DNA of 64,000 nucleotides from the NCBI RefSeq assembly GCF_044324875.1, contig NZ_CP172185.1. One strand, given 5' to 3'. This document shows, in pieces, positions 17,440 to 20,337 of the stretch. Position numbers and translations under genes: made by a program. The notes beneath the pieces are model-generated. The model had not been told where the DNA came from. It made no database searches and saw only the letters and a list, made by a program, of their open reading frames with translations. Source of the DNA: Escherichia coli (GTDB lineage: Bacteria; Pseudomonadota; Gammaproteobacteria; Enterobacterales; Enterobacteriaceae). Within the stretch, counting starts at the first letter, position 1. Each line of letters opens with the position of its first letter.

Positions 17440-17783
17440 AAGATGGATCTTGATTGCGTCCTCAACAGACAACATATCTGCTTTGGACAACGAGCCAATA
17501 TGTGTTTTGAGACAGGACTTATCCGCCGCCATAATCTGCTCTACAATCGCTTTGCTGCTCTGACACCTACGGTCACAACAGCCTCACTTGGATACACTCG
17601 CTCTGTGTTACTGGTCAGAGGAACGACGACTACTCGAGCGAGGTTCCTGTTTGCTGCGTCATTGCTCACGATCACTGCCGGACATGTCTTGCGGATTTCA
17701 CTGTCAACAGCAGGATCAAATTCAATCCACCACGTCTCACCTGTGCCGTCACTGCTCTGTCATCTTTCTAACACTTTACTGTC
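17440..17783 (-). pseudogene. PemK/MazF-family toxin gene, frameshifted, no cognate antitoxin seen
   Basis: Reverse strand encodes ...GETWWIEFDPAVDSEIRKTCPAVIVSNDAANRNLARVVVVPLTSN... then, in another frame, ...IGSLSKADMLSVEDAIKIHLGLLR*; no in-frame start codon ahead of the conserved N-terminus. Confidence 0.5.
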
Positions 17784-17896
17784 TAACACATGTAATAAAA
17801 AAGTTATTTTTCTGCAATTCGGGCATGATATTTAATCCCACGAGCATGAAACGTGTGAATTCGCTCATCAGGTACAACAAGCAAGAGAGATAAACG

Positions 17897-19213
17897 ATGA
17901 AACCGTTACATTATACAGCTTCAGCACTGGTGCTCGGACTGACGTTAATGGGGAATGCACAGGCAGTGACGACCATTCCGTTCTGGCACTCTATGGAAGG
18001 GGAACTGGGTAAAGAGGTGAATTCTCTGGTCCAACGTTTTAACGCCGAAAACCCGGATTACAAAATTATACCGACTTATAAAGGCAACTACGAAGAGAGT
18101 TTAAGTGCGGGGATCGCAGCATTTCGTACCGGTAACGCTCCGGCTATTTTGCAGGTTTATGAAGTTGGCACCGCCACCATGATGGCGTCGAAAGCCATTA
18201 AACCGGTGTATGACGTGTTTAAAGAGGCGGGGATTAACTTTGATGAGTCGCAGTTTGTGCCGACGGTTTCAGGCTACTACTCCGACAGCAAAACGGGACA
18301 CTTACTCTCCCAGCCGTTCAACAGCTCGACTCCTGTTCTCTATTACAACAAAGATGCTTTCAAGAAAGCAGGATTAGACCCGGAACAGCCGCCGAAAACC
18401 TGGCAGGATCTGGCGGACTATGCCGCGAAACTGAAAGCCTCCGGTATGAAGTGCGGCTACGCCAGCGGCTGGCAGGGCTGGATCCAACTGGAAAACTTTA
18501 GCGCCTGGAACGGTCTGCCGTTTGCCAGCAAAAACAACGGCTTTGACGGCACAGATGCGGTGCTGGAGTTCAACAAGCCGGAGCAGGTGAAACACATCGC
18601 CATGCTCGAAGAGATGAACAAGAAAGGCGATTTCAGCTACGTCGGGCGTAAGGATGAATCCACCGAGAAGTTCTATAACGGTGATTGCGCAATGACGACT
18701 GCCTCTTCTGGTTCTCTTGCCAGCATTCGCGAGTACGCCAAATTCAACTACGGCGTAGGCATGATGCCTTACGACGCTGACGCGAAAGATGCACCACAAA
18801 ACGCCATTATCGGCGGAGCCAGCCTGTGGGTGATGCAGGGCAAAGATAAAGAAACGTATACCGGCGTGGCGAAGTTCCTCGACTTCCTCGCGAAGCCAGA
18901 AAATGCTGCCGAGTGGCATCAGAAAACCGGTTATCTGCCAATCACCAAAGCGGCGTATGACCTGACCCGTGAGCAGGGCTTTTATGAGAAAAACCCAGGG
19001 GCGGATATCGCGACACGTCAGATGCTGAACAAACCGTCGTTACCGTTCACCAAAGGACTACGTCTGGGCAACATGCCGCAGATCAGAGCGATTGTGGATG
19101 AAGAGCTTGAGAGCGTGTGGACCGGTAAGAAGACGCCACAGCAGGCGCTGGATACCGCCGTTGAGCGTGGGAATCAGTTACTACGCCGCTTTGAGAAATC
19201 GACGAAGTCTTAA
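17897..19213 (+). CDS. ugpB: sn-glycerol-3-phosphate ABC transporter substrate-binding protein
   Basis: 438 aa, [41 protein letters not shown]..., full-length UgpB; ugpA/E/C are not downstream. Confidence 0.9.
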
Positions 19214-19347
19214 CCAGTGTAATGTCGGATACGTTTCGCCTATCTGAGCTAACATCGCGTGTAGGCCGATGTGATTGACATCTTCCTCCTTACGGCATCA
19301 ACGTTCCAGACTGAGATGTACCCAGTTCCCTGGTGGAGAAGTCAGTC

Positions 19348-20337
19348 ATGAATATTAATCGTATTGGTTTCGATCTTGCCGAAAAATGTTTTTCAAATCC
19401 ACGGCGTTGATCACAATGAATAGTGGTACGGAGAAAAACGCTGAGCCCTCCCCACATGATGACGTTTTTCTCCGGGCTTTCTCCCTGCCTCATCAGCATC
19501 GAAGTCTGTGGCTCTTCCCATTCTGGGCACGGGAACTCATTCCGTATGGGGCCTACCGTGCGCATTATTCCGTAGAAACTTGTCAAATCTTATCTCAAAG
19601 GTAACAAAAACGACGCTAATAATGCAGCTGCCATCTGTGAGGCCGTCAGCAGGCCCGGCATGCGATTTGTTGTTTTCATATCGGAATCCCAGCAGACGTT
19701 ACAGGAAGAATACCGGGTCCGGGCCAGAATCATCCGCGAGCGAACGGCGTTGCGTAATGAAATCCGGGGGCTGTTGAGTGAATTTGGTCTGCTGCTGCCT
19801 GTGGGGATAAGGCACGTGCGTAAAATCCAGCAGGGAATACTGCCCAGGGGCAGTGGAATGACCCTTCATCCGTTTGTTGTGCGAACTGTCAGAGTAAAAT
19901 GAACTCATATCGTCTCATGACCACCGTCTTCATGAGGCTGCAAGGGATGATATCCGTATTAAACAGCTGATGGAGCTAAAAGGAGTTGGTCCCACAACAG
20001 CCTGTGCGCTGGTTGCCTGTATCGGTAATGCACATGATTTTAAAAAGGGACGGCAACTGGCAGCCTGGCTGGGCTGACGCTATCACAATACCGCAGCGGC
20101 TGAATGTCGAAGCTGGGCAGGATAACAAAAGCCGGTGATTCGTATCTGCGAATGCTTCTGGTTCAGGGGGCTCGTTCAGTACTGATTGGTGCTGAGAAAA
20201 GGACTGACTCATTCAGTCGTTGGGTCTGTTCACTGGTTGAACGCAGAGAATACTGACGCGCTGTTGTGGCCATCGCCGCCAGAAAGGTAAGGCTGTGCTG
20301 GGCATCATGTCATTACGGTGATGATTTCAGGCTGTAT
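19348..20337 (+). pseudogene. IS110-family transposase, internally deleted and frameshifted
   Basis: N-terminus MNINRIGFDLAEKCF... and C-terminal ...ELKGVGPTTACALVACIGNAHDFKKGRQLAAWLG...KAGDSYLRMLLVQGARSVLIG... are IS110-like but split across frames with stops. Confidence 0.6.

Follow-up and report, generated by a model that had tools for sequence, protein, structure and literature searches.

An extra Escherichia-type ugpB cassette joined to a toxin gene remnant and a decayed IS110-family element in an Escherichia coli genomic island

The 64-kb stretch of DNA analysed here (referred to as the window) contains a genomic island of the ExPEC/APEC type, in which pseudogenes and IS fragments surround an intact ugpB gene. 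The gene (17897-19213, plus strand) encodes a protein of 438 amino acids including a signal peptide, which reaches 932.6 bits with NF008211, the NCBIfam equivalog model for UgpB (cutoff 411), over residues 2-437 and also matches PF13416 and PF01547. It is about 97% identical to the UgpB structure 4AQ4 in the PDB and 97% identical to UgpB of strain K-12, from which it differs at 12 amino acid positions and with which it shares the length of the signal peptide. The mature protein of the island copies carries 10-11 substitutions, and variants with A189 and with S189 both occur. The residues E66, W169, W172, and R374 (numbering of the mature protein) are unchanged, and Y42, S121, and Y323 are likewise unaltered; Y42, S121, W172, Y323, and the arginine at 374 belong to the ligand contacts of the solved E. 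coli protein. E66, W169, and one arginine have been named as UgpB contacts (bioRxiv 10.1101/529602).

Similarity to the K-12 livF-ugpBAECQ region is limited to positions 17736-19268 (93.5% nucleotide identity), beginning 161 bp 5' of the ugpB ATG in the window (157 bp when numbered on K-12) and ending 55 bp past the stop codon. The remainder of the 64-kb window gave no match to this K-12 region, and livF and ugpAECQ are absent. A preliminary description of the sequence had reported a full-length, solitary ugpB without livF or ugpA/E/C, which the equivalog score and the limits of similarity confirm, and the region is not collinear with the canonical ugp operon. The island copy has in common with canonical UgpB (b3453; PDB 4AQ4 and 6X84) the precursor of 438 amino acids, the ligand residues, the Pho-box promoter, and the ribosome-binding site; it differs in lacking livF before it and ugpAECQ after it, in the loss of the distal regulatory part, and in its location in a mobile island. 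The operon with ugpA, ugpE, and ugpC, a canonical trait missing at the island gene, is a trait of the operon and not of the protein family.

The leader of the island gene (17736-17896, plus strand) was recognized by alignment to K-12 as the promoter-proximal part of the livF-ugpB spacer, of which the proximal 157 bp out of 398 bp in K-12 are retained, and is present at a level of at least 99% in 196 genomes. Using a half-site scan, seven Pho-box half-sites in 11-bp phase were located between 17746 and 17818 (starts at 17746, 17757 with 7/7 matching positions, 17768, 17779, 17790, 17801, and 17812), and these align with the K-12 ugpB promoter; the CTGTCAT and CTGTCTA repeats previously likened to Pho boxes are among them. 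The Pho box is defined by CTGTCAT-like repeats of 7 bp, arranged in tandem in 11-bp phase, that replace the -35 region (PMC4447250), and tandem repeats of this kind and phase are present in the island leader. The leader also contains a candidate -10 element (TATTTA, 17829-17834) and a ribosome-binding site. The island promoter is orthologous to that of K-12 and predicted to be PhoB-dependent. A consensus scan for promoters and terminators returned none that exceeded the shuffle expectation.

Upstream of the leader, on the minus strand, lies a PemK/MazF-family toxin pseudogene (about 17426-17748), identified by HMM search, tblastn, and 78% nucleotide identity to a plasmid toxin. Its translation after frameshift repair matches PF02452 (E = 1.2e-21) from position 3 to position 108 of the 109 in the profile, so that the proposed toxin similarity is upheld at the HMM level; at 21.8 bits, the unrepaired open reading frame of 44 amino acids stayed under the cutoff (23.1). 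When the intact plasmid toxin was used as the tblastn query, two segments in different frames were recovered (amino acids 5-69 and 64-108). The lesions are a single internal 1-bp deletion at about 17558 and the loss of the start codon at the junction, and the KTRPAV motif carries an Arg-to-Cys change. The closest intact relative is a plasmid-borne antitoxin-toxin pair (NZ_CP010124.1, 51110-51653; 78% nucleotide identity), in which the antitoxin gene comes first and encodes 76 amino acids overlapping the start of the toxin. This antitoxin had no match anywhere in the 64-kb window (tblastn, E-value up to 10), and the ugp fragment occupies the place of the antitoxin gene and of the start codon of the toxin. 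The preliminary description was thus right in placing a PemK/MazF pseudogene without antitoxin on the opposite strand, and its suggestion of a decayed toxin-antitoxin locus agrees with the plasmid pair, but the pseudogene has one frameshift rather than two or more, and the distance of about 110 bp to the ugpB start has to be corrected, since some 150-157 bp lie between the ATG and the end of the toxin similarity (about 17740-17748).

The left junction (17736-17748), determined by a three-way comparison of the window, the plasmid toxin, and K-12, consists of imperfect microhomology (TCAC...GCCG) common to the 5' end of the toxin gene and the ugp upstream region, and the exact breakpoint is ambiguous within these positions. 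Through this join the toxin gene lost its start codon, together with the antitoxin gene and the promoter of the operon. The remnant resembles the type II modules pemIK and mazEF of plasmids in having the PemK_toxin signature over nearly the whole profile; unlike them it comprises a toxin only, without start codon, promoter, or antitoxin, and is frameshifted with the Arg-to-Cys change, and because of these losses and changes it is regarded as a fossil and not as a system.

On the other side of ugpB the ugpB-ugpA spacer is retained for its first 55 bp (19214-19268, plus strand), up to a point inside a REP element (GTGTAGGCCG). All seven canonical alleles examined continue with GATAAGCGAAGCGCATCCGGCAC at the point where the window switches to a decayed IS110-family element (19269-20603, plus strand; transposase remnant 19348-20349), which extends to 20603 and past the end of the feature as first delimited (20337). 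Conceptual translations match PF01548 (DEDD; E = 1.2e-8) and PF02371 (Transposase_20; E = 6.1e-25), in line with the IS110 pseudogene noted earlier after ugpB. The internal deletion proposed for it is not supported, since its reading frame spans 999 nt compared to 1023 nt in an intact relative and the element is therefore near full length. The best path through the frames requires at least six frameshifts and passes three in-frame stop codons, so the transposase is not intact, and PGAP also marks a frameshift and an internal stop in it.

The two halves of this element differ in their closest relatives. For the 5' half there is no match at the DNA level in an intact IS110 element of an E. coli plasmid (36% amino acid identity), and the sole relative found for it was a decayed element on a Klebsiella plasmid (67% nucleotide identity), while the 3' half is 91% identical to the E. 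coli plasmid element at the nucleotide level; the change from 36% amino acid to 91% nucleotide identity is abrupt and occurs at about 19966. Similarly, the left junction, where GTGTAGGCCG is followed directly by ATGT, is common to the window and the Klebsiella relative, and the right end (GGGGAAGCC) is common to the window and the intact E. coli plasmid element. The element is thus probably a hybrid, as judged from this pattern of relatedness. No terminal inverted repeats were detected in it. Members of the IS110 family (IS621, ISPpu9/10) have been documented to target REP sequences (PMC1525189), and the element in the window shares with IS621 of E. coli, ISPpu9/ISPpu10, and ISPa11 the DEDD and Transposase_20 domains and the left end abutting a REP half-site. 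It differs from them in being dead, in the divergent affiliation of its halves, and in its right flank, which is not the remainder of the REP, and no intact copy with this type of 5' half was found.

Further upstream, an AT-rich spacer (16707-17425, GC content 0.373) separates the toxin remnant from another IS remnant; its open reading frames at 17068-17418 and 17121-17393 had no significant Pfam or PHROG match, and a scan of 16500-21000 with Rfam gave nothing at E-values up to 1. Downstream, a gene for a secreted phytase-like esterase (PF13449; 20708-22051, plus strand) neighbours the ugpB module and accompanies ugpB in nearly all contexts seen. IS insertions were observed at 17108 and 17473 in other genomes. 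In CP186528.1 and CP148498.1 the segment 17108-22153 is bracketed by IS1, and an IS1 composite transposon was considered and discarded, as the outer 9-bp flanks differ in both genomes and thus form no target-site duplication. In strain BEN2908 the same module is located in the leuX island, not at selC, among genes for a TonB receptor, PTS components, RpiR, and a YadA-like protein and IS genes. Unlike such tRNA-associated islands, the island of the window borders on the cadCBA core region, and the 64 kb contain no tRNA. The RefSeq PGAP annotation already names all three genes (toxin remnant, ugpB, and IS).

The distribution of the module was determined among 5426 complete E. coli genomes. The canonical livF-ugpB-ugpA locus is kept in 5421 of them, and the module is present at 99% identity or above in about 195 (~3.6%), with identical junctions and in several chromosomal contexts; five further records had a best match of 95-99%. 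A context look-up with the exact protein sequence recovered the core of pemK remnant, ugpB, and IS110 remnant at all ten places (10/10) and ugpA at none (0/10). The cassette is thus an extra copy in a host lineage that retains the canonical ugpBAECQ, and the earlier proposal of a paralogous ugpB captured in an island stands.

The island sequence is 92-94% identical to each canonical allele sampled over the 1.53-kb fragment and 94-95% identical over the coding sequence. To rank canonical loci by their likeness to the island allele, a chimeric query of island ugpB and K-12 ugpA was used; the best match among the 5426 genomes was 95.7%, and so no canonical locus carries the island allele. In a protein scan of genome contigs the closest relatives among the matches listed were from E. 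coli (97% amino acid identity) and E. albertii (96%), with other genera at or below 91%, and no donor above 95.4% nucleotide identity was among the matches listed. Metagenomes were searched with two patterns (island-specific SNPs combined with either an uninterrupted REP or downstream ugpA), with 0 matches, so that a donor was found neither in genomes, among the matches listed, nor at canonical loci of E. coli, nor in metagenomes. As a side observation, the divergence among canonical ugpB alleles within E. coli is as large as that between E. coli and E. albertii.

Taken together, the locus is a mosaic of three pieces, in which an Escherichia-type ugp cassette is joined to a toxin gene and an IS110-family element. 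Besides the complete ugpB, the cassette of 1.53 kb holds the Pho-box promoter and the initial 55 bp of the spacer towards ugpA, and its right end is the exact site of the IS110-family element in the spacer REP. We consider it probable (roughly 60%), judging from the sequence comparisons, that a Pho-regulated ugpB cassette was captured by IS- and microhomology-mediated events and that it still produces a working UgpB. A REP-targeting IS110-family element would have inserted 3' of ugpB in the donor chromosome, and recombination between it and another, related IS110 element adjacent to the phytase-like gene would have generated the hybrid element and separated ugpB from the rest of its operon (ugpAECQ). 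The left end would have been set by illegitimate joining to the pemIK module, followed by later decay of both mobile-element genes. The hybrid-IS step and the order of these events are inference only; a simple adjacent deletion could replace that step and would be expected to leave the right end of the IS followed by GATAAGCG and ugpA in some genome.

Under phosphate limitation the extra ugpB would be expressed from its PhoB-dependent promoter, and the upstream cAMP-CRP control region would have been lost from the island copy. The exported protein would act in trans, either by delivering glycerol-3-phosphate or glycerophosphodiesters to the canonical UgpAEC permease or by enlarging the periplasmic pool of UgpB; binding of glycerol-3-phosphate and uptake via UgpAEC are the predicted function, and the toxin and IS remnants would have no role. 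Like orphan substrate-binding proteins of ABC importers, island ugpB has no permease or ATPase genes in cis, so any transport role must go through a transporter encoded elsewhere. Unlike anciently dispersed orphan binding proteins, it is a recent duplicate by transfer with its cognate transporter in the same cell.

That the gene is likely functional is suggested by its intact reading frames, the excess of synonymous polymorphisms, the retained Pho boxes, ribosome-binding site, signal peptide, and ligand residues, and its score above the equivalog cutoff. The reading frame was intact in all 15 copies sampled regardless of their protein sequence (15/15), and these copies contained 8 synonymous and 1 nonsynonymous polymorphisms (P = 4e-5 in a binomial test with the neutral site ratio as expectation). 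Overexpression of UgpB alone confers bile resistance and UgpB by itself has bile-responsive chaperone activity (reviewed in PMC8144458), which makes a function without a permease in cis plausible. Against function, the annotation of strain 135 gives one copy as frameshifted, though it does the same for adjoining genes in that assembly.

A possible but less favoured explanation is that the ugpB cassette is debris that stayed intact through its recent spread and contributes nothing to the cell, i.e., an inert hitch-hiker among pseudogenes and IS fragments in a host whose canonical operon already provides UgpB. Module copies are 99.6-100% identical and their flanks nearly invariant (1 variable site in 688 bp); such flank diversity indicates very young copies, which makes the intactness of ugpB by itself weak evidence. 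Synonymous diversity in the ugpB coding sequence is far above that of the flanks, so that some polymorphisms may be recombination imports from functional alleles and not the result of selection in place. Gene conversion from canonical ugpB as their origin was not supported, as none of the seven canonical alleles (0/7) has the derived state at 17929, 18289, 18461, or 18919; the polymorphisms may come from a source outside the seven alleles sampled. The island branch has 8 nonsynonymous and 16 synonymous changes versus 8 and 55 in three canonical lineages (Fisher P = 0.035), and three of the lineage-specific changes (A45V, Q67E, and P381S) affect sites invariant in 26 orthologues, which fits some relaxation of constraint. 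Against an inert passenger speak the 8:1 ratio of synonymous to nonsynonymous polymorphisms compared to 2:5 in the adjacent phytase-like gene (11 copies), the lack of disabling lesions in 1317 nt of ugpB across 15 copies while the abutting IS remnant has at least nine per kb, and the conservation of promoter and ligand residues.

It is doubtful, though conceivable, that a stand-alone, Pho-controlled ugpB is kept for a benefit of its own, as added periplasmic capacity of a bile-responsive chaperone or as a slightly retuned organophosphate binder feeding the resident UgpAEC, and gives APEC/ExPEC an edge. If ugpB is useful by itself, island-bearing APEC/ExPEC would have an advantage during gut passage or in phosphate-poor host niches.

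Also unlikely is a functionally shifted paralogue with altered ligand preference or role, which may form an organophosphate-scavenging set with the phytase-like esterase and, in some islands, a PhoX phosphatase. It would be consistent with the raised nonsynonymous share on the island branch, with the occurrence of ugpB and the phytase-like gene together across contexts (including the IS1-bracketed 5-kb segment), and with a PhoX-family gene in the same leuX island of BEN2908. The changes Q67E/N68S, A189S, and V398A were also taken in its favour as lying 1-3 residues in sequence from Y42, W169, and R374, but this proximity argument is post hoc and drawn from sequence, not structure, and the protein is 97% identical to K-12 UgpB with all listed contact residues unaltered. 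Polymorphism in the phytase-like gene (5 nonsynonymous and 2 synonymous) looks neutral, IS66 truncates that gene in one genome that keeps ugpB, and the two genes do not form an operon because an IS remnant lies between them. Finally, a rearranged fragment of the genome's own core ugp operon, which the preliminary description had allowed for and which only the gene name and the high UgpB similarity suggest, is excluded by the retention of the canonical locus in 5421 of 5426 genomes, by an allele that is 5-6% different from every canonical allele sampled and sits at none of the canonical loci, and by the same junctions in several contexts of about 195 genomes.

The probable capture of a Pho-regulated ugpB cassette leaves what looks like an ordinary mosaic island structure with little that is new, in which the extra ugpB still looks usable. 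The locus provides an example of a core-type gene that was probably severed at a REP by an IS110-family insertion and fused to plasmid debris, and the region illustrates island accretion, mostly of little consequence. If the extra UgpB adds to phosphorus scavenging or bile tolerance, it would be of modest importance for E. coli of poultry and for human extraintestinal E. coli.

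An intact open reading frame for a 438-aa UgpB lies at 17897-19213 on the plus strand. The encoded protein scored 932.6 bits against the NCBIfam UgpB equivalog model (cutoff 411), aligned end to end with PDB 4AQ4 and carried 12 residue differences from K-12 UgpB, including two within the signal peptide; the signal peptide was retained, as were E66, W169, W172 and R374, which we take to be the ligand residues. When the K-12 livF-ugpBAECQ region was compared with 16700-20900, ugp similarity was confined to 17736-19268 (93.5% nt identity), i.e., from 161 bp upstream of the ATG (157 bp in K-12 numbering due to a 4-bp indel upstream of ugpB) to 55 bp past the stop codon. 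Since no further ugp-like DNA was found elsewhere in the 64-kb window, ugpB is solitary in cis, and its preliminary description as full-length and standing alone was borne out.

The left boundary is a PemK/MazF toxin gene remnant on the minus strand (~17748 down to 17426; plasmid toxin similarity, PF02452). Its nearest intact relative (108 aa, 78% nt identity) is located on the E. coli plasmid NZ_CP010124.1, where it is preceded by an overlapping 76-aa antitoxin gene; other relatives were plasmid-borne at 78% or less. Using tblastn the remnant was recovered as two segments (aa 5-69 and aa 64-108) in different frames, indicating a single 1-bp deletion near 17558 in place of the two or more frameshifts initially described, and the toxin similarity passed a profile search, the repaired translation matching the whole PF02452 profile (E=1.2e-21). 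In the remnant the conserved KTRPAV motif reads KTCPAV, a change that, judged by MazF and its catalytic arginine, would also inactivate the toxin. A three-way comparison showed that toxin and ugp similarity overlap at 17736-17748 in an imperfect microhomology (TCAC...GCCG), and that at this junction the toxin gene has lost its ATG with all preceding sequence, including the antitoxin, whose absence had been noted correctly. One event would have taken out antitoxin, promoter and toxin start codon together, which may be why an antitoxin-less toxin gene was tolerated. Downstream of the remnant lies a 720-bp AT-rich stretch (16707-17425; 37% GC) for which no family, RNA or repeat assignment was found; in other genomes it carries insertions of IS1 and another element.

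In alignment, the 161 bp kept upstream of ugpB match the promoter-proximal part of K-12's livF-ugpB spacer. At 17746-17818, seven half-sites resembling CTGTCAT follow one another in a strict 11-bp phase (the one at 17757 being a perfect match) and fit the Pho-box definition (PMC4447250); the earlier remark on Pho-box-like repeats was right and had even been understated. A candidate -10 element (TATTTA) is positioned 10 bp beyond the half-sites and is followed by a K-12-like ribosome-binding site. Absent is the distal part of this spacer (240 bp), which reportedly carries cAMP-CRP control (Kasahara et al. 1991).

At the right boundary, all seven canonical alleles compared, from the livF-ugpB-ugpA locus of six E. 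coli and one E. albertii, read GTGTAGGCCG and then GATAAGCGAAGCGCATCCGGCAC, a REP palindrome, whereas in the window GTGTAGGCCG is followed by ATGTGATTGAC... instead. Here an IS110-family element (19269-20603) begins, whose transposase remnant (19348-20349) contains both family domains. The remnant is not internally deleted, as had been proposed, but near full length (999 nt vs. 1023 nt in an intact relative); its lesions are at least six frame changes on the best path and three in-frame stops, and the element is thoroughly dead. Its right end, GGGGAAGCC, is the same as that of the intact E. coli plasmid element. The left junction (GTGTAGGCCG followed by ATGT) is common to a decayed relative of the 5′ half (67% nt identity) on many Klebsiella IncF plasmids, such as the K. 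pneumoniae plasmid NZ_CP075453.1 (~34.2-34.8 kb), which suggests a shared REP-like target; REP-targeting is documented for IS110-family members (PMC1525189). The missing REP half was not present at the right flank of the element. To the E. coli plasmid element the 3′ half has 91% nt identity and the 5′ half 36% aa identity with no detectable nt similarity, the switch lying at ~19966. Two related copies may have recombined into a hybrid, and such recombination would cut ugpB off from ugpAECQ.

The canonical locus was detected in 5421 of 5426 complete genomes (2.7-kb K-12 livF-ugpB-ugpA probe, coverage ≥80%), the island fragment at ≥99% identity in 195 and the island-specific promoter in 196, so that almost every carrier has the two copies. 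Apart from five records at 95-99%, the remaining genomes gave matches of only 92-94%, and a chimeric probe built so that canonical loci bearing the island allele would rank first retrieved none. Canonical ugpB alleles within E. coli (loci L002, L006, L110-L113) are unusually diverse, with 94.5-98.8% pairwise coding identity (dS ~0.2), a divergence as deep as that between E. coli and E. albertii, and look mosaic. The island allele was 93.8-95.4% identical to all canonical alleles compared and is a further old allele of the Escherichia type, not one clearly from another genus; no donor was found among the matches listed in species-representative genomes, nor in metagenomes. The first interpretation, a captured paralogue beside a decayed toxin-antitoxin locus, was right, the allele being foreign and extra to the canonical locus, and the observation stands with details such as its frameshift count and IS110 deletion corrected.

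Across the assembly collection, the exact island UgpB protein was recorded in 846 blocks. The core of toxin remnant, ugpB and IS110 remnant was the same in 10/10 contexts read, and the outer flanks varied through IS1, IS3 and IS66 insertions, one IS66 truncating the phytase-like gene (20708-22051, plus strand). The secreted product of the latter (PF13449) matched no NCBIfam model and had no relative by sequence among solved structures. In strain BEN2908 (NZ_LR740776.1, 4843266-4888000) the module lies within the leuX island, ~12 kb from a PhoX-family phosphatase gene; ugpB, the phytase-like esterase and the PhoX-family gene are three phosphorus-scavenging-type genes on one island. In two genomes (CP186528.1 and CP148498.1) the equivalent of 17108-22153 is located between inverted IS1 copies with identical inner junctions, different outer flanks and no 9-bp target duplication, suggesting relocation or inversion mediated by IS1. 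Within the window, which is E. coli DNA, the cadCBA-dtpC-lysU core region takes up the right third and a mosaic ExPEC/APEC-type island the remainder; the core DNA flanking the island on the right is on the cadC side, the usual place of pheU; neither a tRNA gene nor the pheU 3′-end repeat was detectable in 1-64000, including the core part (~48.5-64 kb).

Island ugpB is probably expressed and useful, with a probability of roughly 0.6. Fifteen copies were chosen irrespective of protein sequence; all were intact, and eight of their nine segregating sites were synonymous (binomial P=4e-5 against the site ratio), the exception being A189S (S189 is commoner, the window has A189). The phytase-like gene had five nonsynonymous and two synonymous polymorphisms (11 copies). 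The intact copies, the 8:1 sites, the contrast with the lesion-ridden IS and the phytase-like gene, and the kept promoter, ribosome-binding site, signal peptide and ligand residues were counted in favor of a live gene. By itself, UgpB is reported to serve as a periplasmic chaperone that responds to bile and to increase bile resistance when overexpressed (PMC8144458), and a role without neighboring permease genes is credible because of this activity and the canonical UgpAEC in the same cells. Strain 135 (NZ_CP080260.1, 776312-782523) has two module copies, the second ugpB being annotated as frameshifted; this may be an assembly error, the neighboring rpiR and ltrA being annotated as frameshifted too.

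Against these points, and for an inert passenger, which we consider rather unlikely, count the youth of the module, synonymous variants that might be imports, and a raised nonsynonymous share. Within 17473-19490 (15 copies, loci L001, L097-L109), the flanks (pseudogene and non-coding) had one variable site in 688 bp vs. nine in the coding sequence, and the module is therefore young; the derived states of the polymorphisms were absent from the seven canonical alleles, and the excess synonymous variants could have been imported. On the island branch the ratio was 8N:16S vs. 8N:55S in three canonical lineages (P=0.035), and the changes there include A45V, Q67E and P381S, which alter residues that do not vary among 26 orthologs. 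A functional shift of island UgpB is improbable.

The module, already auto-annotated in ~195 RefSeq genomes, is a routine outcome of island assembly via IS elements and microhomology; the one mildly interesting point is the apparent maintenance of the captured binding-protein gene.
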